From: an uncultured Candidatus Saccharibacteria bacterium | GTDB lineage: Bacteria > Patescibacteriota > Minisyncoccia > Phycocordibacterales > DATDWN01 | Length of the DNA stretch: 64,000 bases | Assembly: GCA_964453075.1 (NCBI GenBank) | Contig: CAYVNM010000002.1 | Location: 4,279 to 68,278 of the forward strand | Reading direction: 5' to 3' | Shown: positions 15,685-58,757 of the stretch, piece after piece | How the letters are laid out: every line of letters starts with the position of its first letter | Position numbering within the stretch: position 1 is the first letter of the stretch | Notes under the pieces: generated by a model | Seen by the model: only the letters and a program-made list of their open reading frames with translations | Told to the model about the DNA's origin: nothing | Database searches by the model: none | Program-made: the position numbers and the translations under genes

Positions 15685-15771
15685 GGACAGATGAGTGAGT
15701 GGTTGAAACTAGCGGTTTACTAAACCGCCGTACCCTAACAGGTACCGTGGGTTCGAATCCCACTCTGTCCG
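15685..15771 (+). tRNA. Type II (long variable arm, Ser-like D-loop) tRNA whose 7-nt anticodon loop reads TTACTAA, i.e. apparent anticodon ACU.
   Basis: Acceptor GGACAGA/TCTGTCC. D-loop GAGTGGTTGAA. Anticodon stem GCGGT/ACCGC with loop TTACTAA. Variable arm GTACC-CTAACA-GGTAC. T-arm GTGGG-TTCGAAT-CCCAC. Confidence 0.6.
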
Positions 15772-15823
15772 CTAAAATTTGGAATCAGGTGTATAATAAA
15801 AACATACAAGCTAACAAAAAATT

Positions 15824-18827: not shown

Positions 18828-19019
18828 TTACACCTTCCTCTGTCGAACCTTCCTGGTTCCATTGTGCCCGTGAGAACCCTTCTTCGGATCCTGTGGCACA
18901 ACCTTCTCTTCTCGTCCCTTGGGTGGATTGACCAGAACTTCCGCCTGCGCGGACCCCTCGGTTGCGACTGCAAACGGAGAGTAGAACGCTTTCGTTGCTG
19001 GAAACAATCTATGGGCCAT
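18828..19019 (-). CDS. Small basic protein of atypical GC-rich composition (gene K), unknown function.
   Basis: 63 aa: MAHRLFPATKAFYSPFAVATEG...KKGSHGHNGTRKVRQRKV. Strong SD (taGGAGGttgtccaATG). Local GC far above background. Upstream palindrome CAGAGTCTcccAGACTCTG (19239-19257). Confidence 0.45.
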   Translation of the reverse strand: MAHRLFPATKAFYSPFAVATEGSAQAEVLVNPPKGREEKVVPQDPKKGSHGHNGTRKVRQRKV

Positions 19020-19301
19020 TGGACAACCTCCTATACCAGGATACTAAAAACTTAGATTAATACAAGTATTATAGTTAAACCAGAGCCTACGAGACTCTGC
19101 TGAGAGTGAACCATATCGTCACGAGTTTTAAAAAGCCGACACTTAAGAATCTCGAAACTTACAGTTTCTGTACACCTGTTCTGTTTTTTACTTCGTAAAC
19201 TCGTAAAAAACTATCACAGGTTTTCGAGTCCTGACACAGAGTCTCCCAGACTCTGCTGAGGGTAAACACGTAAAAAAGCACCTTACGTGCTTTTTTTCGT
19301 G

Positions 19302-19375
19302 TCCGCCCTCCAGGACTCGAACCTGGGACCCCAGAGGTATAAGCTCTGTGCTCTAACCAACTGAGCTAAGGGCGG
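19302..19375 (-). tRNA. tRNA-Ile(UAU) (AUA decoder).
   Basis: Minus-strand sequence CCGCCCT-TA-GCTC-AGTTGGTTA-GAGC-A-CAGAG-CTTATAC-CTCTG-GGGTC-CCAGG-TTCGAGT-CCTGG-AGGGCGG-A. The anticodon loop CTTATAC gives UAU. Terminator hairpin lies immediately downstream (19273-19300). Confidence 0.7.
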
Positions 19376-21752: not shown

Positions 21753-22196
21753 ATGTCCCTTATATCAAACAAAAAAGCATACTTTAATTATGAAATTGGA
21801 GAAACATACAGTGCTGGTATGGATCTTTTTGGTTATGAAGTAAAATCACTCCGTAAGGGACAAGGGTCTCTCGAAGGGGCATATGTCACAATTCGAGGAA
21901 ACGAAGCCTTCCTTATAAACTCTTTCGTACCACCATATCAAGAGAAAAACGCACCCACCGACTACAATCCACGCAGAAACCGAAGGCTTTTGCTAACAAA
22001 AAAAGAGATAAAGGAACTGGGTGATATTGAGAAAACCAAAGGCTTGACAATTGTACCTATTTCGGTGTATAATAAAGGAAGAGTTTTGAAGATTGATCTC
22101 GGAATAGGTAAAGGTAAAAAGAAATTTGATAAACGCGAGACACTGAAAAAAAATGATATGGACAGAGAAATCCGTAGAGAGTTTAAAGATAGATAA
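21753..22196 (+). CDS. smpB: SsrA-binding protein SmpB.
   Basis: MSLISNKKAYFNYEI...GYEVKSLRKG...YNPRRNRRLLLTKKEI SmpB signature. The tmRNA gene follows immediately. Confidence 0.85.
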   Translation: MSLISNKKAYFNYEIGETYSAGMDLFGYEVKSLRKGQGSLEGAYVTIRGNEAFLINSFVPPYQEKNAPTDYNPRRNRRLLLTKKEIKELGDIEKTKGLTIVPISVYNKGRVLKIDLGIGKGKKKFDKRETLKKNDMDREIRREFKDR

Positions 22197-22241: not shown

Positions 22242-22637
22242 GGGGATGCCAGGTTTAGACAAGTAAATTCTTTGACAATGTGCATGGTAGAGCTCTAGAA
22301 TCTCTTTAAACCTCTAGAAAATGTAAATGCAAAAAATACATTTACAAAAGCAGTTCCTTCACCATTTATGGCGAATGGATTTGCTCTCGCTTTCGCTTAA
22401 TCTTTTAGATTAAACCAAAACGGCGGCTATTCTCTGAAGTCTGTTACGGGAAATAGTTGATATATCTTCGGACTAGGAATCGTTTTAGTTTCGAGACGCT
22501 TCTGAACTAAAGAAAACTGGACTTTTATTTATTTTGTAAGCTTAAAGAATAAAAGTTGAGAAAAATAAAACTTACTACACCATGTAGAAACATTATCAAA
22601 ACTTATTTGCACGGGGGTTCAATTCCCCCCTTCTCCA
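22242..22637 (+). ncRNA. ssrA: tmRNA (ssrA).
   Basis: 5' GGGGATGCCAGGTTTAGAC. Tag reading frame GCG AAT GGA TTT GCT CTC GCT TTC GCT TAA (22371-22400) gives ANGFALAFA-stop. 3' tRNA-like T-arm GGGGG-TTCAATT-CCCCC plus acceptor CTTCTCC-A. G3:U wobble as in tRNA-Ala. Followed by a long hairpin terminator (22629-22684). Adjacent to smpB. Confidence 0.85.
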
Positions 22638-22920
22638 CAATAACGAGCCACCCGCAAGGGTGGTTTTCGTTATTGTGGAGAAGGAGCAAACCAGACGGTT
22701 CTGGTTTGCGTGGGGATTTGAAAACCTTTGATAGTTTTTTGTGAGTTTGCGAAACAAAAAACAGAAAAGTTATACTGAAACTGTAAGTTTCGATTCCCCC
22801 TATAATAGATATTTTGTGAGCGGCAACGAACAAAATATTCCTGACCTAATCCACCCTTCTCCACAACTATTGACATTAATTAATTGGTGTGATATCTTGT
22901 GTAAAGGAGGGAGATTTGCG

Positions 22921-23109
22921 ATGACCGAACTGGAAATGAGCCTCGGGAACATCAAGACTGCTGTCGACGCTCAGGCAAAGCTCTTGGAAGCTGCGTTGGC
23001 ACTTGCCGAGGGAAGTGTGGATAAACACAATTCTCTCCTGCTTGAAGCGAAGAACATTTTCGATGCACGCATCGCCGAGCTCAAGAAGGAACTCGAGCAG
23101 ATGGAGTAG
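22921..23109 (+). CDS. Small coiled-coil protein of atypical GC-rich composition (gene E).
   Basis: MTELEMSLGNIKTAVDAQAKLLEAALALAEG...ELKKELEQME. Promoter TTGACA-17-TATCTT (22868-22896), SD AAGGAGG, and terminator agaccgc...gcggtct after the stop. Confidence 0.5.
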   Translation: MTELEMSLGNIKTAVDAQAKLLEAALALAEGSVDKHNSLLLEAKNIFDARIAELKKELEQME

Positions 23110-23275
23110 CCACACCCACCAACAGACCGCATGGTTCGCCCAGCGGTCTTCGTCTTTATATAAATTTAAATAATTTAAAAAAATAAAATATATTCCCCTG
23201 TATACCACCCCCCTCCATTGACTAACCTCCCAAAGAGAATATAAATATATACAGACAACAACCCAGGAGGGCTTT

Positions 23276-23443
23276 GTGGAACAGCAACAAGCGTTCACCG
23301 AGAAGCCTCTCCAGCGTTTTTTAATGGATGTGGCTTTTGGACTTTGTATCTGTTTGTTTGTTTTCCTTTTTCATCTTGTAGAAGTCAAGAAACTTGAGAT
23401 GAAAAAGGTAAACGATGCTTCGATGACCACGCCCACCCCCTAA
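23276..23443 (+). CDS. Small hydrophobic peptide (gene L, about 55 aa, GTG start), atypical composition.
   Basis: cAGGAGGgctttGTG start context. Promoter TTGACT-16-TATAAA (23218-23245). Product ...MDVAFGLCICLFVFLFHLVEVKKLEMKK.... Terminator cccgccacgtcccccacggacctggcggg-ttt. Confidence 0.35.
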   Translation: MEQQQAFTEKPLQRFLMDVAFGLCICLFVFLFHLVEVKKLEMKKVNDASMTTPTP

Positions 23444-23745
23444 CCCGCCACGTCCCCCACGGACCTGGCGGGTTTACCATTGTTATTCTATTTTAAAACA
23501 AAAGCGCCTGTAGGGGCACTTTTGTTTTGAACCTAAAACCAAGTATATTTTTTAAAACAAGGAGAAATTTTTTACAATAAATGCCATTGTAATAATGTTG
23601 GTGATCAATGTCGCCCATAGAATTAAGTAAGCTGACATTGGTAATTTTATTTTTTGTGGATTCATTGTTTTTAGTATTATTTTTAGTAAAGCCCTACGCA
23701 AAACCTTATTATAGAATTAATTTGTTTATTAAACAACACCAGATG

Positions 23746-27787: not shown

Positions 27788-27922
27788 TGTAATTTTTATA
27801 TGCCCACTCCTTACAGGAGCAGTACACCTTTTGGATTTTTTAATTCACTTCGTTCTTAAAAAATCTCAAGAAGGTCTTGCAGTTGGGTCCCGTCCCAACC
27901 TCACCGCTCAAAAATGTGATGC

Positions 27923-28324
27923 TTAATCTTTTTTCCATATTTTTATTCCGTACAAAGAACCAACTAATCCACCAATCAAATCCAAGATTAAGTCAGACGA
28001 GGTGTCGGTAACATAGGCCATGCCATCAGAAAAAGAAGTGGTCCCGACACTTAGTTCAAGAAATTCCCACAACAATCCTACAACTAAAGTACTAAACAAA
28101 ACCCGAATAACAACTTTCTTATTCGTCCACGTAGAAAAATCTATTGTTTTTTTTATAATAACCAAAGAAAACATCCCAACAATAACCCCTCCCAGAAAAT
28201 GAAGAAGCATATCATACCACCAATAAAACCAGTCTAAATAAAATTTAACACTAGCAAAAAACAAAACAGCAAGAATAAATAACAATATTGAGGCTGTTTT
28301 AAATAAAGTTGTTTTTGTCATCAC
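27923..28324 (-). CDS. Polytopic membrane protein, hypothetical.
   Basis: 4 predicted TM helices. Confidence 0.4.
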   Translation of the reverse strand: MMTKTTLFKTASILLFILAVLFFASVKFYLDWFYWWYDMLLHFLGGVIVGMFSLVIIKKTIDFSTWTNKKVVIRVLFSTLVVGLLWEFLELSVGTTSFSDGMAYVTDTSSDLILDLIGGLVGSLYGIKIWKKD

Positions 28325-34731: not shown

Positions 34732-35274
34732 CTAGCCGATTAGCTTATTCAGGACCGCCGCCCAGTCCTTAGACTCAGCCTTCCGACCAGCATCCTGGAA
34801 AAATCGCAGGACGGCACCGTTCGCGAAGCGGAATGAATCACGTATTCTGGATGATTCCTCCAGAATAGACCCTTCCGCATTCTGGTGATGGTGGTTGGAG
34901 AAAACCACCGCCACAAACCTGGTCCCAGCTGCTATTGCCGACAGGGCAAGCTGGTAACCCACCAACTTCTCAGTGCCCCAGTCCGAATTGTGATAAAATC
35001 CATCAAATGGCATCATGCCGTCCGACAACACGACATCCCACGGAACACCAGCACTGAAATCCTCGTAATGCTTGTTGCTCCAGGACGAATAGCTGCCAAT
35101 CGAACGACCTGCCGTGAGATTGGCAACCTTGCGGTTCTCCACCGAATCTCCCCGACTAATGAGCATGTTGCCCATGTCGTAACTTGCAGTGGTGAACACG
35201 TCGTGTGACCCCCCCAATTGGGCGATGGCCCCATCGAGGTTTTCCTGCCGATCGTCAATAACCAAGATCTTCAT
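34732..35274 (-). CDS. GC-rich inserted gene A: divergent CheY-like receiver-domain protein. Unknown function. Lies inside the spc operon between rplE and rpsZ.
   Basis: MKILVIDD...DVVLSDGMMPFDG...RFVAVVFSNHHH receiver-like motifs with long insertions. Extended -10 TGTATAAT, SD AAGGAG-ctacc-ATG. Composition clearly above background. Confidence 0.55.
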   Translation of the reverse strand: MKILVIDDRQENLDGAIAQLGGSHDVFTTASYDMGNMLISRGDSVENRKVANLTAGRSIGSYSSWSNKHYEDFSAGVPWDVVLSDGMMPFDGFYHNSDWGTEKLVGYQLALSAIAAGTRFVAVVFSNHHHQNAEGSILEESSRIRDSFRFANGAVLRFFQDAGRKAESKDWAAVLNKLIG

Positions 35275-35461
35275 GGTAGCTCCTTGGCCCCTAGGGCCGG
35301 AAAAAGTGGTTGTCAAACTGTCCACCTAAAATTATACACCTATTTAATCTCTTTGTCAATTGTTTTTGCCGATACCCACCCTCTAAACAGCAAAATAGCC
35401 CTATATTTAGGGCTATTTTTGCAAAATCCAAGGGGAGTCCTTGGATTTTAGTAATTTTCTG

Positions 35462-42645: not shown

Positions 42646-42870
42646 CTACTTCACCTCAACTGACGAGGTCGGGGTCTCGGACTGGATCCTCTCCGCCTGA
42701 AGCTGGGTCTTGATGAGCTCCAGGATTCCCACAAGCTCCACTTCCGGGATGTTGGTGGTTCTCGAGAACTCACTCACATTCCCGATGATCCAACCCATTA
42801 TCCCCGGGTTCTTCCTGATCAGAGCCTTGAGAATCCTATAGGAACTCAAGGCTTTGTGCATTTCGTCCAT
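42646..42870 (-). CDS. GC-rich inserted gene D (74 aa, unknown), between rpsJ and rplC.
   Basis: Own promoter TTGACT-16-TATTTT, SD gaaAGGAGGagacaccATG, and own terminator after the stop. Composition atypical. Confidence 0.5.
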   Translation of the reverse strand: MDEMHKALSSYRILKALIRKNPGIMGWIIGNVSEFSRTTNIPEVELVGILELIKTQLQAERIQSETPTSSVEVK

Positions 42871-42975
42871 GGTGTCTCCTCCTTTCAATAAAATATCACC
42901 TAACTTCAGAAAGTCAACAATATCAAAAAACCACCCAATGGGTGGTTTTTGTTATAATTATTTATTATTTTTGAC

Positions 42976-43955: not shown

Positions 43956-45152
43956 TTAAGCGACGATTGAAGTCACAACTCCTGCACCAACTGTTTTACC
44001 TCCCTCTCGAATAGCAAATCTCTGGTTTTGTTCTAGAGCAACTGGGGCTACTAGTTTAACTTTGAATGTAACTGTATCTCCTGGCATAACCATCTCTACT
44101 CCCTCGTTTAGAGTCACATCTCCTGTAACGTCTGTAGTTCGGATGTAGAATTGTGGTTTGTAACCAGAGAAGAATGGAGTGTGTCTTCCTCCTTCCTCTT
44201 TCTTTAGGATGTAAACCTCAGCTGTAAACTCTGTGTGTGGAGTCACTGACTTTGGCTTTGCAAGAACTTGTCCTCTGTGGATGTCCTCTTTCTTAGCACC
44301 TCTTAGAAGGATACCTGCGTTGTCTCCAGCCTCTCCTTGTTGTAGAGACTTGTTGAACATTTCAATACCAGTAACTGTGTATTTTTGTGTATCTTTTAGA
44401 CCAACACACTCAATTTCCTCTCCTACTTTCACAACACCTCTTTCAATTCTTCCTGTAACCACTGTTCCTCTTCCTTCAATTGAGAAGATGTCTTCAACTG
44501 GCATTAGGAATGGCTTATCTAGGTCTCTTTGTGGAACTGGGAAGTATGTGTCCAATGCTGTTGCAAGGTCCAAAACCTTCTTTGCCCATTCGTCATCATT
44601 GTTAGCTGATTCAAGTGCCTTTAGACCTGATCCTCTAATAATAGGTGCTCCTGCTCCGTCGAAACCTTGTTTTGTAAGGAGTTCTCGAACTTCCTCCTCA
44701 ACTAGGTCAATAAGCTCAGCATCTGGAACCATGTCGCATTTGTTTAGGAATACGATGATTTTTGGTACTCCAACTTGCTTTGCTAGAAGAACGTGCTCTC
44801 TTGTTTGAGGCATCACACCGTCTGTAGCTGCTACCACTAGTACTGCACCGTCCATTTGAGCGGCACCAGTAATCATGTTTTTGATGTAGTCAGCGTGTCC
44901 AGGGGCATCTACGTGAGCATAGTGTCTTGTAGGTGTCTCATACTCGTTGTGAGAAAGAGCAATAGTAATTCCTCTTGCTTTTTCCTCTGGAGCTGAGTCA
45001 ATTTGATCAACTCCTTTTAGTTTTGCTGAATATCCATTACCTGCTCTGTTAAGAACAGTTAGAATAGCTGCTGTTAATGTTGTCTTTCCATGGTCAACGT
45101 GACCAATTGTTCCCACGTTTACGTGAGGTTTGCTTCTATCAAAATCTGTCAT
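43956..45152 (-). CDS. tuf: Elongation factor Tu.
   Basis: [26 protein letters not shown]. Confidence 0.95.
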
Positions 45153-45623: not shown

Positions 45624-48572
45624 TTATTTTATTTGTAAAAATTTCTTCACATTTTTAAAAGCTCGCTCATATGCGTTATCATCAAGAAACCAACCCCCTT
45701 TTAAACCACTATCAAACTTTAGCTTTGGGCTCAAGACTGACCCTTTTACCTCCATTGAACCACTAGCTATCTCTTTTCCATTGAGCAAAACTTTCATTCC
45801 CATTGGATCATCTTTCAATCCTTGAACTATGTAGATCTTCCCGCCCTCAAACTCAACCGCAGTAGGACTTGATCCAATCTGATCAACTCTAGCGCTTTTT
45901 TCAAAAGCTTTTGCAAAGGCACTTCTCAAATCTTTATATTTTGCACCATCTTGAAATTTATCATCCAAGACCAATAATTTTCCGTTACCAAATGTCTGTT
46001 CGTGGGCTATGGTTTGGTCACCAAACTTGACTATTTTACTCTCCCCTTCGGCCAAAACCTCAACCACAGAATCATTGTGAGGAATTTGATAAACAACATT
46101 TGTTGGTCCTGAAGTATCTACTGTTGGTATTATTTTTGGTTCTTCTGGAATTGTTGCCTGTTCTACGGGTGCCATTCTAGAATCCCATTCAGGCACTTTT
46201 GCCTCTATTACTGCCGGATGATCGACATCAACAGGAACATCAGCCAATTTCTCTGCAATCAAAGTAGTATCTTGAGTTGGTACTACTGCTTCTTGGGGAG
46301 CTTGTTTTAAAGTATCTCTACCAATATGACTCAATGTTTCCTTTGTACCATCCACATGTTCAATTATCAACTGTCCATTATCATTCATTGAGAGCTTCTC
46401 TCCAACAAAACCCACGGCACTATCATTAACCTCTCCTGGTTTATATAATCCATAATCTTTTGCTATCTCAACTGTCGGCCTGTCTATTATGTTCTTTTTG
46501 ATTTCTGGAGGAATATTATCACCGTACTGTTTTATAATATTTGCCTTGAGATTATGAATGTCTTGCAAGAATCCCTTTGAACTCAGCTCAACTTTTATGG
46601 AAGACTTTTCAAAAACAGCAGATGGTTTGGCAGTATCAATCGTATTTGCTACCGCTTCTTTATTTGGCAAAGCTGTTTCCAAACTCCCCGCTTGCATTGT
46701 TTTTGGTTTTATTACCCCATCAAATGGAGCTGAAACTTTTGTTTGTGTAATTTTTGGTTTGTTTGGTATTGATTCTGTATTACTTCCTCCAATTCCTACA
46801 CCAGAAGACAGCGCTGACTCTGCAAGTCCTGTCAAAATACCAGCACCTGCACCAGCACCAACCATCACCATGGCTTTTTTTATTCTTTGATTGTTTTTTC
46901 TTTTCAATTCTTCTTCTCTGGCTTGCATGTAACCTGTCTCTCTTTGCTCAAAGGTCTTACCTGAAGACTCATCTGTATAATCTGAAATACTTTTTTCTTT
47001 GGCCTCTGTATTAATTTTATCTGTCCTCTTTCCATATATATTACCAGCAACCCTAGAACCAAAAGCTCCTCCTATACCCCTACCCAAACGAGTTCCTGCA
47101 TATAGAGCGCCAGCGCCAAGACCAGCAGTTAAGCCGACTCCCGTACCTATGAGTATTGGAGCAACAGCCATACGTAAAGGAGCTGGAACTTTTGACCAGA
47201 CCTTAAGTCCTTTGGCAGCCAATTCTTTTACCTTTTGTATCTTCTCATTATCCCCAGAAGACAATGAATCAATTTGCTCTTGTAATAAATTCCACTCTTG
47301 TTCTGCCTGTTCTAATAACTTTATTTTAATTTGACCCAACATCTCCGCTTCCTCTTCTGGAGTCAGGGGTGTACCACCCTGTTCTTTTTCTATAGCTTGA
47401 GTCTCAAAAACATCGATTATTTCGTCTTTTTTTATTTTTTTCTGACTAATGTATGCGGCCAAGGCTTCATCTAGATTATTTTGAGCTTCTTCCAAATCTA
47501 TCTCTGTTGGAGATTTTTCTTTTGAACGTCCAGATAAAATTCCACCAGAAAGCAACCCTTCTAAAGAACCTTTTATTTTATTGTACTTACTATTTTTTTT
47601 GTTAAATTCTATTTTTGCTCGAGCATAATTTTCACGAGCCAAATCCAAATCAGTCTTAGCCTTTTCAACCGTCTCTGGGGCCAAATCAACCAACTTGTGT
47701 TCTGATTCTGTAACCACATCAGGTTCTGGAGTGGCCACTGGTTCAACTGAATCTAGTTTATCAACAGTCGCACCAGACATCTCTGCCGATAAATCATTTG
47801 TTTTTTCTATATTAGTCTCTGTTGGAACTGGATTGATTGCATCTTCTTTTTTTTGTATTGATTGCAACCATACAATCCTCTTTTCCTCATCTTCGATGTT
47901 ACTTACCACCTCACGAGCAGAGCCAAAATTCTTACGTGCAATAAAAATACGAACCAAATCCTCCAGAGACTGATTTTGTTTGTTTTTATCTTTGATTTGT
48001 CTTGCATAACCGATAGCCTTAGTTAGATCCGATGACCATGTATTACCAAACAACGTTAGAAGTTCTTGATCAGAATCTGCAACCACATTATTCATACCTG
48101 TATCTATTACAGATATCTCTGGGTCTGATTCTGATTCATTTTTTGGTTCATCAATAAAACCAAGAGCCGTATTGTATTCTGATTCCGTTAAATAATGCAA
48201 TGAATAGTACTTACCAAGTGCCTTTACCATTGACTTTCTAGGCATATTTTCCATGCTGTGTAATAAAGATCTTTTTGGCACCTTTTCAGATAAACCATTA
48301 ATATAATCCACCAAACCCTTGGGCATAGGAAAAATCTCTTCCCTTTTTTCACCCTCTGGACTGGGTTGATTATTAATTACAGGCGCTGAAGGAGGAATTG
48401 CAGATAAGTCCAAATTGTCTGTTGGTTTTTGGGGAACTTCAGAAAAATCACGTATCCCAGAAGAAGGTTCTGGTTGAAGTTTTAATTCTTGTCCGGCCAA
48501 AAAATCTAGTGGATTTTTTGATGTATTTAGATGCAAATCTAGATCATCTATTCTTTCTGCAGGAGTTGCCAT
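45624..48572 (-). CDS. Large (982 aa) hypothetical membrane/surface protein with glycine-zipper TM segments.
   Basis: Acidic coiled-coil N-terminal half. Two Gly-rich hydrophobic segments (VAPILIGTGVGLTAGLGAGALYAG, VMVGAGAGAGILTGLAES). C-terminal roughly 400 aa globular part. Confidence 0.5.
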   Translation of the reverse strand: MATPAERIDDLDLHLNTSKNPLDFLAGQELKLQPEPSSGIRDFSEVPQKPTDNLDLSAIPPSAPVINNQPSPEGEKREEIFPMPKGLVDYINGLSEKVPKRSLLHSMENMPRKSMVKALGKYYSLHYLTESEYNTALGFIDEPKNESESDPEISVIDTGMNNVVADSDQELLTLFGNTWSSDLTKAIGYARQIKDKNKQNQSLEDLVRIFIARKNFGSAREVVSNIEDEEKRIVWLQSIQKKEDAINPVPTETNIEKTNDLSAEMSGATVDKLDSVEPVATPEPDVVTESEHKLVDLAPETVEKAKTDLDLARENYARAKIEFNKKNSKYNKIKGSLEGLLSGGILSGRSKEKSPTEIDLEEAQNNLDEALAAYISQKKIKKDEIIDVFETQAIEKEQGGTPLTPEEEAEMLGQIKIKLLEQAEQEWNLLQEQIDSLSSGDNEKIQKVKELAAKGLKVWSKVPAPLRMAVAPILIGTGVGLTAGLGAGALYAGTRLGRGIGGAFGSRVAGNIYGKRTDKINTEAKEKSISDYTDESSGKTFEQRETGYMQAREEELKRKNNQRIKKAMVMVGAGAGAGILTGLAESALSSGVGIGGSNTESIPNKPKITQTKVSAPFDGVIKPKTMQAGSLETALPNKEAVANTIDTAKPSAVFEKSSIKVELSSKGFLQDIHNLKANIIKQYGDNIPPEIKKNIIDRPTVEIAKDYGLYKPGEVNDSAVGFVGEKLSMNDNGQLIIEHVDGTKETLSHIGRDTLKQAPQEAVVPTQDTTLIAEKLADVPVDVDHPAVIEAKVPEWDSRMAPVEQATIPEEPKIIPTVDTSGPTNVVYQIPHNDSVVEVLAEGESKIVKFGDQTIAHEQTFGNGKLLVLDDKFQDGAKYKDLRSAFAKAFEKSARVDQIGSSPTAVEFEGGKIYIVQGLKDDPMGMKVLLNGKEIASGSMEVKGSVLSPKLKFDSGLKGGWFLDDNAYERAFKNVKKFLQIK

Positions 48573-48643: not shown

Positions 48644-50785
48644 TTATTTTCTACTTTCTACAATAGTCTTCTCAACGTTTGGTGGTACAACCTCGTAATG
48701 ATCAAACTCCATCATCACACTTCCTCTACCCTGTGTCATAGAACGAATATCAGTAGTGTAACCAAACATTTCTGACAATGGAACTTTGGCATGAATAACT
48801 CTGAGCATTCCCCTCTCTTCCATTCCTTCAATTTGACCTCTCTTTCCTGAAAGTGATCCTGTAACATCACCCATGAACTGTTCTGGCATGATAGCATCAA
48901 CTTTCATAATTGGTTCTAGAATAACTGGACGAGCTCTTTTGGCTGCGTCCTGGAACGCCTGTGAAGCTGCGATCTTGTAAGCGATTTCTGAAGAGTCCAC
49001 ATCGTGATATGAACCGAACGTAAGCTCACAAGAAACATTTACCATTTTGTACCCAGCAACAATTCCTCGGTCCATAGCCTCGTGAACACCCTTCTCAACT
49101 GCTGGAATAAACTCTTGAGGAATGACACCTCCTTTGATTGAATCAATAAACTCAAAATCTTCGTATCTCTTAACGTTCTTTGGAATTTTTGCCCCTTCTT
49201 CTATTTTTTCAAGAGGTTTGATTGTAAGTTTAACGTGACCATACTGACCCTTACCTCCAGTTTGCTTGATATATTTATGTTCTGCTTCTGCTGTACCCAA
49301 AATAGTCTCTCTGTATGCCACCTGTGGTTTACCAACATTAACCTCCACACTGAACTCTCTCTTCATACGATCAACCATAATCTCAAGGTGAAGCTCTCCC
49401 ATTCCTGAAACTATAGTTTCTCCTGTTTCTGTGTTTGAAGAAACAACAAATGTTGGGTCTTCATCAGAAAGTTTTTTCAAAGCCATACCCATTTTCTCTT
49501 GATCTGCTTTTGTCTTTGGCTCAATACGTAAAGCAACCACGGGAGCCACAAATTTAATTGGGTCTAGAACTATTGGTTTGTTTTCATCACATAGAGTGTG
49601 TGATGTTTTTGCGGATTTCAATCCCACAGCCGCAGCAATCTCTCCAGCAAAAACTTTTTTTACCTCCTCTCTTTTGTCTGCCTGAAGCCTCACAATACGT
49701 CCAAGTCTTTCTTTCTCTCCTGTTGTTGAGTTATATATGTATGTTCCTGCTTCTATTGTTCCAGAATAAACACGGAAGAATGTAAGCTGACCAACGAAAG
49801 GATCGTTTTGCAATTTGAAAGCGAGTGCAGCAAAAGGTTCTTCATCAGAAGCATGTCTCACTGTTTCCTCACCTGTCTTTGGATCCAAACCTCTTACTGG
49901 AGGAATATCTAGAGGAGATGGTAAGTATTCTACAACCGCATCCAAAACAAGCTGGATTCCTTTGTTTTTCAATGCTGAACCGGCCATAACAGGAACAAGC
50001 TTTACTTCCAAACACGCTTTTCTAAGAGTTTTCTTCAACTCTTCTATAGTAGGCTCATTTCCATTTAGAAACATTTCCATTTGAGCATCATCTTGCTCTA
50101 CAATCTTTTCAATAAGTTCTGCTCGGAATTTCTTTGCCTCGTCTAGATACTCTGCAGGAATTTCTGCCTCACGAATATTCATACCCATATTTCCCTCAAA
50201 GTAGTAGGCCTTCATTTTCAAAAGATCTATCACACCCTCAAATTTATCTTCCAAACCAATAGGAATTTGAAGTCTAACTGCATTTTTTGTAAGTCTGTCT
50301 AAAATAGATTCGTATGATCTCTCAAAAGACGCACCTGTTCGATCAAGTTTGTTTATTAGACAGATTCTAGGAACATTACCATCATCCGCGTATCTCCAGT
50401 TTGTTTCAGACTGAGGTTCCACACCAGCCACACCGTCAAACACAACAACCGCGCCGTCCAAAACTCGGAGACTTCTTTTCACTTCAGCTGTGAAGTCAAT
50501 GTGCCCAGGAGTATCAATGATATTGAAACGATACTGTGGTTTACCGTCTTTTGGCATGTAAGTAGGATTCCAAAAACAAGTAATAGCAGCGGCGGTAATA
50601 GTAATACCTCGCTCTCTTTCCTGTTCCATCCAGTCAGTCACTGTCTCGCCTTCGTGTACCTCACCTATTTTGTGTGTCATTCCAGTATAGAAAAGCACAC
50701 GTTCTGATGTAGTTGTCTTACCAGCATCAATGTGAGCAATAATACCGAAGTTTCTAACTCTCTCCAATGGATAATCGCGGTTCAT
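48644..50785 (-). CDS. fusA: Elongation factor G (start at [25 protein letters not shown]).
   Basis: [17 protein letters not shown]. Confidence 0.9.
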
Positions 50786-50906
50786 AATAAAATAATAATT
50801 TAATAAATAAAAAAGCCCTAGGGCAATCACACAAAACTATATACTAAAAGAACTTCTGTTGCAATACAGATTAGACTGTGTTAGAAATGCCTTCAGGAGG
50901 TACCCA

Positions 50907-51152
50907 ATGAAAGTGCTGAAAATGTTCGAGGTTGCTGAAGCATTGTTCCGAGTTGGTGGAGGTGAACACAGATTCCAACTCGGAATCCCCGTCACCGTCA
51001 AAAACACCAGTACGGGAGAAGAAATCAGAATCGTCGGAATTGAAGTCAACGAGACCTACAAGGATGTCGTGCATCTGTACGCCGAAAACAGCATCCAAGC
51101 TCTCAGCCCCGACAACTTCGAGATCGTCGGACCAGCGCCAGACGCCCAGTAG
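50907..51152 (+). CDS. GC-rich gene F (81 aa, unknown).
   Basis: Promoter TTGCAA-17-TAGAAAT, SD AGGAGGtacccaATG, terminator aaggccccgagtaattaggggcct-tt (51157-51183). Confidence 0.5.
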   Translation: MKVLKMFEVAEALFRVGGGEHRFQLGIPVTVKNTSTGEEIRIVGIEVNETYKDVVHLYAENSIQALSPDNFEIVGPAPDAQ

Positions 51153-51527: not shown

Positions 51528-51878
51528 TTACGTAGTTCTCTTTGAGAAATGTACCAGGTGTTCAAGAAGCAGTGAAAGTCTTACGGGCACACCCGCAGCG
51601 TCAGCGATACCTGCAAGGTATCTGAGCTCGTCACCTGTAAGCGTTTGATCCGGCGCCAGAACTCGCTTCCCCAACTTTGAAAGAAAAGCCAGGCGATCGA
51701 CTGGAACGCCAAGAACCTCAGCAACGTGCTCTAGGCGTTTCTTCGGTATGGGGCGCGTACCGTTCAGTACCTGCTCGTACATGAACGCAGAGAAACCAAG
51801 TAGTTTACCAAACTCTCCCTTAGTCTCACCGCGCTCAACTCTTTTTGCCTCAAGTAACTTCTCAATCTCACTCTTCAT
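51528..51878 (-). CDS. GC-rich gene G: XRE-family helix-turn-helix transcriptional regulator.
   Basis: GETKGEFGKLLGFSAFMYEQVLNGTRPIPKKRLEHVAEVLGVPVDRLA is an HTH_XRE motif. Promoter TTGACA-17-TAGTTT, SD AGGAGGgttctaacaATG. Confidence 0.6.
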   Translation of the reverse strand: MKSEIEKLLEAKRVERGETKGEFGKLLGFSAFMYEQVLNGTRPIPKKRLEHVAEVLGVPVDRLAFLSKLGKRVLAPDQTLTGDELRYLAGIADAAGVPVRLSLLLEHLVHFSKRTT

Positions 51879-54010: not shown

Positions 54011-54193
54011 TCACGATGCAGCTCGGTTTTTGTCTGGCGTTTCCTGTTCCCGCCAAACAACACGCCCACACTCTGGACAAGCCCATTTCTCCATGACCGG
54101 CCCAATACCAGTCAAGAAAGGTACGGGTTTGCCGTTGCGATCGAGCACACGCTCGAACTCCACATCACACTTTATGCAAGTTTTCTTGTCCAT
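54011..54193 (-). CDS. GC-rich gene H: 60-aa zinc-ribbon protein.
   Basis: CIKCD...CPECG (C4). Extended -10 tgTATAAT, SD GGAGAGGAGGtgtgccATG. Confidence 0.45.
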   Translation of the reverse strand: MDKKTCIKCDVEFERVLDRNGKPVPFLTGIGPVMEKWACPECGRVVWREQETPDKNRAAS

Positions 54194-54241: not shown

Positions 54242-54490
54242 TCACCTTTTGGGCGAAGCTGTTCTAAGAAAAGAAAGATCGACGGACGAGACCTGCTCCT
54301 CCACAACGACTTCCACGAGATTGAAGTTTGAACACTCTTCTGGATTCGGGAGACTATCGATGTGGCGCCGAACTACCGCCTCCATCAATCTTTCTGAGTT
54401 AGCCTTGAACTCAAACTTCCCCACGACAAACTTCAGTGGAGAAAGAGAGTGAGCAGTCCTAACCCAAGTAAGTCTGTACTTATGAACCAT
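54242..54490 (-). CDS. GC-rich gene I (82 aa, unknown), immediately upstream of gene H on the same strand.
   Basis: SD GGAGGtgttatATG. Atypical composition. Confidence 0.4.
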   Translation of the reverse strand: MVHKYRLTWVRTAHSLSPLKFVVGKFEFKANSERLMEAVVRRHIDSLPNPEECSNFNLVEVVVEEQVSSVDLSFLRTASPKR

Positions 54491-58454: not shown

Positions 58455-58757
58455 ACTTTTTATATACGAAAAACGGCGCCCTCTTTCGAGAACGCCGTGG
58501 AAGTATGGGGGTTGGTTTACGGCTGTATCCCCCGGGGTCGCCAGCCCTTAGCCTACGTGTGCGCCGGGTCTTCCAGCCCAACGACTGAATCTACCACGGT
58601 GGCATTATATTTTAACTCTTAGAAAGATCTTTGAATCCGGACATTTCGCTTATAAGCTGGCTGTTCCGGCAGGCCAAGGAGACTTGAGCCCTGATTCTCC
58701 CAACAGGTCATATTTCTGGCCTTATTTCTGCGACACCCCTTTCGGTTTGTCTTTCGG
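58455..58757 (-). ncRNA. Candidate structured ncRNA (about 300 nt), identity unresolved (RNase P RNA, SRP RNA or novel).
   Basis: Near-consensus promoter TTGACA-17-TATACT on the minus strand (58764-58792). Intrinsic terminator cggcgccctctttcgagaacgccg plus a T-run at the 3' end (58455-58486). GC-rich. No ORF longer than 33 aa and no SD. Confidence 0.5.

Follow-up and report, generated by a model that had tools for sequence, protein, structure and literature searches.

Genes for tRNAs and transfer-messenger RNA (tmRNA) are well-established targets of tyrosine-integrase islands and prophages (Islander definition, PMC4383910). Genomic islands at the tmRNA gene ssrA have been described from Dehalococcoides (PMC3146451), and integration of mycobacteriophage Ms6 proceeds via a crossover in the T-loop (PMC1762012). 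Besides, cis-mobilizable elements (CIMEs) are made up of attachment (att) sites without a recombination module (PMC5704250), and CTX-phi exploits Xer (PMC3442271, PMC4246890). In the present study, a 64,000-nt stretch of contig CAYVNM010000002.1 from an uncultured Candidatus Saccharibacteria bacterium (hereafter the window, meaning this whole stretch) was analyzed with regard to its ssrA gene, the 3' end of which is followed by partial copies of itself. The segment framed by these repeats (about 226 nt, 22641–22866) contains neither an integrase nor any other gene and is, on balance, interpreted as a protein-less, non-autonomous "tail element" at the ssrA 3' end, belonging to a larger family, with small gene cassettes accumulating beside it. 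Tail units of this kind, a description of which was not found in the literature searched, constitute an uncatalogued and widespread family behind tRNA and tmRNA genes of Patescibacteria, which are tiny and for the most part uncultured bacteria.

The ssrA gene itself encodes an intact full-length tmRNA, as found by ARAGORN (22242–22638) and with Rfam RF00023 (22242–22640, 111 bits), both in agreement with the start at 22242 given in a preliminary description of the locus. The tag proposed there, ANGFALAFA, is right for the C-terminal part, whereas the whole predicted tag is longer (AKNTFTKAVPSPFMANGFALAFA); this long form is kept in relatives. The 13-mer CCCTTCTCCACAA, representing the last 13 nt of ssrA, occurs exactly at 22628–22640 and 22854–22866 and, inverted and with one mismatch, at 22673–22685, the latter having been overlooked previously. 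When allowing up to one mismatch, these three matches in the window compare with 0.10 expected, and three were reached in 0 of 100 shuffles, i.e., the 13-mer is not frequent by chance. All of them stand in or next to ssrA; the far attachment site that the preliminary description suggested to search for with this 13-mer was not found in the window. In addition, GTTTCGATTCCCCCT is located at 22787–22801, and its part TTCGATTCCCCC (22789–22800) is identical to the tmRNA T-loop/T-stem at 11 of 12 positions. Both direct pieces of the tmRNA 3' end noticed before are therefore confirmed, with their coordinates corrected by one position. The repeats and associated structures are as follows:

22242–22640, plus strand: ssrA, encoding tmRNA (ARAGORN; Rfam RF00023)
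22618–22640, plus strand: copy 1, within ssrA, consisting of T-loop TTCAATT, T-stem 3' half CCCCC, acceptor 3' strand CTTCTCC, A and CAA (read from the sequence; repeat search)
22629–22684, plus strand: long palindrome with 18-nt arms CCTTCTCCACAATAACGA and TCGTTATTGTGGAGAAGG, 100% complementary (inverted-repeat search, terminator scan)
22686–22709, plus strand: hairpin a, GCAAACCAGA cggt TCTGGTTTGC (inverted-repeat search)
22711–22802, plus strand: R1 core (covariance model R1, 74.3 bits, E = 1e-16)
22802–22852, plus strand: R2 scaffold remnant of 51 nt, hairpin 22808–22838 plus CCTGACCTAATCC (homology to complete R2 units)
22850–22866, plus strand: second half of the displaced copy, TCCACCCTTCTCCACAA (16 of 17 positions identical to the ssrA end)
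19143–19234, minus strand: the other R1 unit of the window, 3' of tRNA-Ile(UAU) (19301–19375; model R1, 70.1 bits)

The palindrome encloses the terminator hairpin (22645–22666), having the end of ssrA as its left arm and the inverted ssrA-end copy TTGTGGAGAAGG (22673–22684) within its right arm. Hairpin a, an equivalent of which is present in most family members, stands between this inverted acceptor copy and an inverted copy of T-stem and T-loop. The R1 core starts 71 nt past ssrA on the same strand and is composed of a 5' arm representing the inverted copy (GGGGATTTGAAA), the P2/P3 hairpin and the hairpin H2 (GAAAC-TGTAA-GTTTC), and it ends in the first half of the displaced copy, TTCGATTCCCCCT (22789–22801). 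The window sequence 22711–22802 belonged to the seed alignment of the R1 model; loci L003b, L006, L027 and L016 did not, yet match it (loci from relatives and other metagenomes are designated by L and a number). The R2 remnant is homologous to the 3' part of complete R2 units such as those behind tmRNA in L083 and behind tRNA-Ser in L182. For 22668–22870, a fold of -66.6 kcal/mol (z = -7.2) is predicted which is closed by a 12-bp stem between 22673–22684 and 22855–22866. As the R2 remnant splits the copy and the fold is closed across it, the two fragments previously regarded as separate copies are the halves of a single displaced ssrA 3' end reaching from the T-loop to the gene end (22789–22801 plus 22850–22866). 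Two generations are thus nested at ssrA, an R1 core upon an R2 remnant. Position 59 of the tmRNA T-loop (22623) is a T in the window (TTCAATT), compared to TTCAAAT in L205, L206, L083, L002 and L004. The T is also found in the direct copy of the window's R1, and the inverted arm matches the A version instead.

The second R1 unit of the window is located just 3' of tRNA-Ile(UAU), its minus-strand sequence 19231–19152 showing 85% identity to 22714–22793. Here, the direct copy is decayed and a GC-rich 63-aa open reading frame (ORF, 18828–19019) comes next. Furthermore, a lone P2/P3-like hairpin without arms or H2 is present at 27806–27878 on the minus strand (R1 model positions 11–82, 42.6 bits), adjoining the stop of the gene at 27923–28324, and a similar match is found in L007 (15406–15475, minus strand).

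When querying with the 20-mer ACWGAAACTGTAAGTTTCGA taken from the R1 core end, at least 120 exact matches were obtained in metagenome contigs and none in IMG/VR viral contigs. Among the matches listed, the end of a tRNA gene on the same strand lies 90–150 nt upstream in 86 of 127 R1 units, with 14 of the remaining ones being too short upstream to judge. The neighbors in these matches comprise tmRNA as well as tRNAs with about 30 anticodons, representing 15 amino acids, and an exact copy of the 19-nt end of the neighboring tRNA (T-loop, T-stem 3' half and acceptor 3' strand) is present in 38 of the 82 non-redundant units, or in 49 when tolerating up to two mismatches. Exact 3'-end copies following the motif TTCGA are derived from tRNA-Ser(ACT) in L002, tRNA-Ser(GCT) in L003 and tmRNA in L027. 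The identity mostly runs 1–5 nt past the discriminator into nucleotides that are genomic and not CCA. Priming of a retro-element by mature tRNA at a primer-binding site was considered and rejected, as the copies carry post-discriminator genomic nucleotides (CAA, CATT) instead of CCA. In the units listed, CCA is encoded after 6 of 49 displaced copies but after 0 of 49 gene copies, which suggests that the origins of the two copies differ.

The association was also recovered by a scaffold-blind test on 82 related genome loci, in which a 13-nt copy of the gene's own end was found 44–213 nt downstream of 12 of 95 tRNA/tmRNA genes, compared to 0 of 95 for upstream copies as control. In about 10 of 82 relatives, the R1 model has matches that follow a tmRNA or tRNA gene, and tmRNA is accompanied by a unit in about nine of the relatives sampled. 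R2, R3 and R4 are sister scaffolds with identical layout. Searching the window and seven loci against Rfam 15 at permissive thresholds revealed only tRNA, tmRNA and noise. Moreover, no protein is recurrently encoded beside R1, the top family, found in 11 of about 125 listed loci, being a housekeeping one; large serine recombinases are found near R1 in five of these loci. A phage attP site bearing the ssrA end was likewise considered; the sole viral match (L084) is a phage tRNA-Ala gene and irrelevant.

From the gene outward, a unit consists of the gene's own end, a variable apex hairpin that often is the terminator, an inverted copy of the acceptor 3' strand, the small hairpin a, an inverted copy of T-loop and T-stem 3' half, the long bulged hairpin P2/P3, a linker GUACU, the 5-bp hairpin H2 with loop UGUAA and, finally, TTCGANT plus direct copy. 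Across 77 sequences, 85.8% of the cells in the closing helix and P2/P3 are paired, versus 66.9% in shuffles. The corresponding covariation score of 0.452, versus 0.158 in shuffles, was reached in 0 of 500 shuffles, and slid controls scored far lower. At the pair involving T-loop position N59, UA was found in 36, AU in 15, CG in 11 and GC in four sequences; because this pair covaries, the 5' arm is an inverted and not a direct copy of the tRNA T-loop. Accordingly, a pseudo-tRNA with an insert in its T-loop could be dismissed, given a 5' arm of the sequence A-N'-TCGAA in which N' is the complement of N59. Many G.U but few reciprocal A.C pairs were seen, indicating that the tRNA-sense strand is the folding strand. 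In copies that had not been picked by the 20-mer, the H2 stem covaries around the constant loop UGUAA (GAAGC/GCTTC in L006, GACCA/TGGTC in L027, GAGTC/GACTC in L003 and GGTCG/CGACC in L212). The inverted acceptor and T-stem copies are above permuted controls.

Compared with the systems outlined at the outset, the units share with tDNA/ssrA islands the targets (ssrA and tRNA genes), the intact regenerated gene with a displaced direct copy running from the T-loop to just past the gene end, and tandem accretion. However, the bounded segment is only 120–230 nt long, with no integrase and no cargo between gene and displaced fragment, and the units have an additional inverted copy, a covarying core and one scaffold at about 30 tRNA genes. 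As in CIMEs and CTX-phi, att-like repeats form the bounds and an enzyme would be needed in trans, given the lack of an own recombinase. In contrast to the units, those elements are kilobases long and use one fixed site (fda, dif), while the enzyme serving the units in trans is a putative one only. With integron attC and CTX-phi attP(+), the units have in common an imperfect inverted repeat that, once folded, would restore a duplex recombination site in its stem, and the order of parts in a unit matches the outcome of single-strand integration (PMC4792948, PMC3442271). Unlike in attC, a GTTRRRY-type box is absent, as judged by eye only, and the arms copy the tRNA end; unlike in integron arrays, the adjacent small genes E and L (see below) carry their own promoters, and the window encodes no tyrosine recombinase. 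Finally, the units resemble repeats of the repetitive extragenic palindrome (REP) and miniature inverted-repeat transposable element (MITE) type in being short, protein-less, hairpin-forming, intergenic, present in many copies and favored targets of the IS110 family (PMC2229807). In contrast to REP, REPIN and MITE sequences, their terminal arms vary with the upstream gene and their position is confined to tRNA/tmRNA 3' ends. Among the small palindromic repeats to which the units can be likened, REPIN/RAYT systems belong as well.

The features flanking the unit are as follows:

21753–22196, plus strand: smpB, conserved neighbor 5' of ssrA (Pfam SmpB, E = 6e-48)
22867–23150, plus strand: cassette E (promoter-like site, ribosome-binding site, ORF, hairpin 23124–23149)
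23210–23474, plus strand: cassette L (TTGACT-16-TATAAA, ribosome-binding site, ORF, hairpin 23442–23474)
23492–23531, plus strand: A/T-flanked GC hairpin (inverted-repeat search; 89% identity to L083 3224–3261)
23746–24321, minus strand: conserved 191-aa secreted-protein gene, adjoining the ssrA terminator in L002–L004

The gene order at the locus is tRNA-Ile(UAU)–ftsH–smpB–ssrA, and smpB–ssrA synteny is retained in relatives. The window stems from a Paceibacteria/Zambryskibacteria-like member of the Patescibacteria, and its SmpB protein shares 94% identity with the counterpart in one metagenome-assembled genome and 79–81% with those in three more. Genes for a type IV pilus, ComEC and RecJ are also present in the window. 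In L002, L003 and L004, a single short terminator follows tmRNA and the stop of the minus-strand gene is reached within about 60 nt, so that about 1.1 kb (22641–23745) is extra in the window. L205 and L206 show 95% identity to the window across smpB, ssrA and the inverted copy, diverge at the core start (22723) into an R4 core of 132 nt and return to the window sequence at 23210; hence, R1, the R2 remnant and cassette E are absent there. L083, with flanks 88% identical to the window, holds R2 and E. Comparison of the junction, as envisaged in the preliminary description, thus reveals that the core type changes between closely related strains (R1 in the window, R4 in L205/L206, R2 in L083). Likewise, tRNA-Ile is followed by R1 in the window, L001, L003 and L008 and by another scaffold (R3) in L002 and L004.

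Some further observations were made at these loci. The tRNA-Ser with anticodon ACT (15685–15772, plus strand) and the tRNA-Ile with anticodon UAU (19301–19375, minus strand) of the window are both kept in relatives (L002, L003 and many metagenome loci). In L206 (positions 1–200), tmRNA is reduced to its final ~75 nt, upstream of which the sequence is unrelated and coding-like; this is due either to a larger ssrA island, whose right junction it would be, or to a chimeric assembly. In L002 (7415–7457, minus strand), a second partial tRNA-Ile copy lies about 20 nt past the intact gene and begins in the anticodon loop; it looks like an att duplication of the anticodon-loop type whose copies are hardly separated.

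An IS110-family element encoding DEDD and Transposase_20 domains, with the termini CCACCATAGAACC...GGGGTTCTATAGA and CG on either side, is present at nine loci, which lie behind five different tRNA genes. In all nine, the insertion point is ...TCG|AA..., between 5' arm and core of otherwise complete units. Because of its own termini and its location inside complete units, this element targets the units and does not create them, and the units are a specific insertion-sequence target. REP and attC sequences are likewise targeted by other IS110-family members, IS1111-type elements being those that target attC. R1 was also considered as right end or bridge RNA of the IS110-family element, and this was rejected in view of the element's own termini and CG duplication inside complete units. 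The small units are without these termini. The window encodes no DEDD transposase ORF, and its two matches to the terminus CCACCATAGAACC at two mismatches compare with 1.08 expected. The element measures ~1.34 kb, encodes a 345-aa transposase with more than 100 near-identical database proteins (L208 2932–4268, L209–L218, L097) and has a conserved non-coding region of ~300 nt after the transposase gene.

Distal to the displaced copy, the promoter and the two small genes with their own terminators that had been noticed previously were recovered. Cassette E has a promoter-like site at 22870–22898 (TTGACA-17-TATCTT, upstream TG), the ribosome-binding site AAGGAGGGAG, an ORF of 62 aa (22921–23109) and thereafter, as read from the sequence, a GC-rich hairpin (23124–23149). 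A search of 5.8 billion proteins revealed only two homologues of its product, both encoded at this locus. The E ORF in L083 is 98% identical to that of the window, in contrast to its absence from the closest relatives L205/L206. Cassette L encodes a 55-aa protein with one hydrophobic helix (ORF 23276–23443), for which two homologues with 89 and 76% identity exist in other arrangements, directly behind the R4 unit in L205/L206 and behind a 229-aa ORF in L207. Substitutions in L number 9, 8 and 20 at the three codon positions, and this concentration at third positions is a coding signature. In both cassettes, the promoter is consensus-like, the ribosome-binding site strong and the hairpin GC-rich. 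The atypical composition reported for both genes is evident from a third-codon-position GC of 0.65 (E) and 0.48 (L) versus 0.32 in smpB and 0.26 in ftsH. Neither E, L nor the other mini-genes gave matches to Pfam and PHROGs beyond one weak helix-turn-helix (HTH), and a 25-mer upstream of E had no viral matches. A further copy of the ssrA end 3' of E/L scores at chance level, and none was found elsewhere in the 64-kb window either. Since E and L start only beyond the displaced copy, with no additional ssrA copy 3' of them, they are not the cargo of that event, contrary to their earlier interpretation as cargo remnants. Instead, E and L are separate promoter-bearing, GC-rich, strain-variable mini-gene cassettes that are lineage-specific and have a hot spot in common with the unit, and they are plausibly exchanged among strains by homologous recombination following the uptake of DNA. 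Behind the tRNA-Ile unit, a different GC-rich mini-gene is present in each relative. GC-rich cargo as a general companion of R1 was discarded, as GC-rich DNA follows only 5 of 67 units. The counterpart of hairpin 23492–23531 in L083 stands directly after ssrA.

At least six further GC-rich mini-genes (50–59% compared to 37.6% for the window), encoding 60–120 aa, are intergenic and away from tRNA genes. All are equipped with a promoter of the TTGAC type, a strong ribosome-binding site and a GC-rich hairpin; one gave the weak HTH match and one is zinc-ribbon-like, with no others assigned:

18828–19019 (minus strand), 42646–42876 (minus strand), 50908–51152 (plus strand), 51528–51878 (minus strand), 54011–54193 (minus strand) and 54242–54490 (minus strand): further mini-genes

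In addition, a GC-rich (up to 0.59) 197-aa ORF without Pfam match (34732–35325, minus strand) is located between rplE and rpsH in the ribosomal-protein operon, and a 981-aa ORF (45624–48572, minus strand), also without Pfam match, lies between the EF-G gene (48644–50830) and a 398-aa ORF (43956–45152). The GC-rich (0.57) intergenic region 58480–58720 is structured-RNA-like and matches no Rfam family at gathering score.

Regarding the origin of the unit, we infer a recombination mechanism by analogy with the integrating systems. The tail element would insert by recombination at the T-loop, giving the gene a new 3' end plus terminator and pushing the native end downstream. As it has no recombinase, an enzyme acting in trans would be needed for moving it, and the substrate might be a folded single strand with a stem mimicking the target duplex, as known from CTX-phi attP or integron attC. 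Insertion is favored since a repeat that starts in the T-loop and stops shortly beyond the gene is the trace of T-loop-type integration (PMC4383910, PMC1762012), and a non-autonomous element is favored since the order gene end–apex–inverted arm–rest–split arm fits integration of a folded single strand (PMC3442271, PMC4792948). Exchange from strain to strain may be aided by homologous recombination after DNA uptake. In a broader sense, R1–R4 might tentatively be seen as a novel type of miniature mobile element, or as RNAs derived from such elements, homing to the tRNA/tmRNA T-loop/3' end via a folded target mimic, with the core as handle for the trans-acting enzyme and the arms being reprogrammable. 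Several points weigh against a mobile tail element. No recombinase, excised form or clean pair of empty and occupied alleles was observed, so that mobility is deduced from the distribution only. An element bearing the 3' end of one gene cannot simply hop to another tRNA. The inverted copies are often short (5–8 nt). GC-rich DNA follows only 5 of 67 units across the listed family members, and the link between unit and E/L may therefore be coincidental; moreover, E and L lie outside the repeats. Finally, the strong covariation and the constant strand are equally compatible with a functional RNA.

The latter is the main rival and compatible with the element reading: with a probability that we regard as rather low but still substantial, the unit would mainly be a functional non-coding RNA, made with or after the tRNA or tmRNA and mimicking its acceptor/T-arm "top half", which could act as terminator/insulator, processing aid or decoy for tRNA-binding enzymes or T-loop-targeting insertion sequences. 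Selection for pairing would then keep the copies, and they would have spread by duplication or gene conversion, not by transposition. In line with an RNA are the strong covariation and the G.U asymmetry on the tRNA-sense strand, the constant strand with a gene within about 100 nt, the conserved UGUAA loop on a covarying H2 stem (L006, L027, L003, L212), the ability of the inverted copy to pair with either the gene end or the direct copy, and the landing of the TCG|AA-cutting insertion sequence in the unit and not in the tRNA T-loop. This is opposed by the patchy occurrence at orthologous genes of close relatives, by tandem units (L160, L195, L216) as well as truncated and decayed copies, and by direct copies that are often degenerate, e.g., in the tRNA-Ile unit of the window; besides, no promoter was identified, the terminator often precedes the unit and no Rfam family matches. 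How about 30 specificities arose from one scaffold is explained by neither the RNA nor the element reading, which also counts against the tail element.

The preliminary description saw here the footprint of site-specific integration at ssrA. Its basis, a direct repeat starting in the T-loop, stands, while the bounded segment turned out to be about 226 nt of structured core without cargo. A decayed stump of an integrase-mediated ssrA island, with E/L as leftover cargo and the integrase lost, would be in accordance with this repeat, with the foreign composition of E/L and their lack in L002–L004, with ssrA being a known island site (PMC3146451, PMC4383910) and with the possible right junction of a larger island at ssrA in L206, a sister strain. 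Indeed, as stated before, no integrase is left, given that integrase, resolvase or transposase domains were not detected in any sizeable window ORF scanned. However, E/L are not enclosed by the repeats and lack a distal copy of the ssrA end, the closest strains differ from the window by an insertion/deletion of E but share the left part of the unit, and the core of the 226-nt segment is common to units behind more than 80 unrelated, cargo-free tRNA genes. As the same small layout recurs there without cargo or integrase, a family of miniature elements is indicated instead of the remains of a classical island, which we consider improbable. A derivation from an RNA-guided IS110/IS1111-type element, the copies being bridge- or seek-type RNA guides that program insertion beside a given tRNA, appears highly improbable. 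It could account for sense and antisense target copies within a unit and for about 30 target specificities on one conserved scaffold, and IS110-family transposases are physically with units in nine loci. Yet the element there is delimited by termini of its own and a CG duplication and is located within otherwise complete units, its termini are missing from the small units and from the window, and the copies are 17–24 nt long and paired to each other. Known IS110/IS1111-type guides are loop-borne, unlike these mutually paired copies.

Tools for detecting integration at tRNA/tmRNA genes seek kilobase-sized islands bearing an integrase, whereas the tail units represent a far smaller, protein-less layer with a core of ~100 nt, found behind about every eighth tRNA/tmRNA gene of the Patescibacteria sampled. 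Resembling partial tRNA/tmRNA pseudogenes, they confound annotation. They are specific targets of an abundant IS110-family element and, in the lineage of the window, adjoin hot spots of small foreign genes. If the units are mobile, the junction CTGTAAGT -> TTCGANT plus T-stem, acceptor and apex would mark circles or excision products, and the question arises how one scaffold gains about 30 target specificities without an own recombinase. If they are RNAs, organisms with minimal genomes would possess mimics of the tRNA top half.

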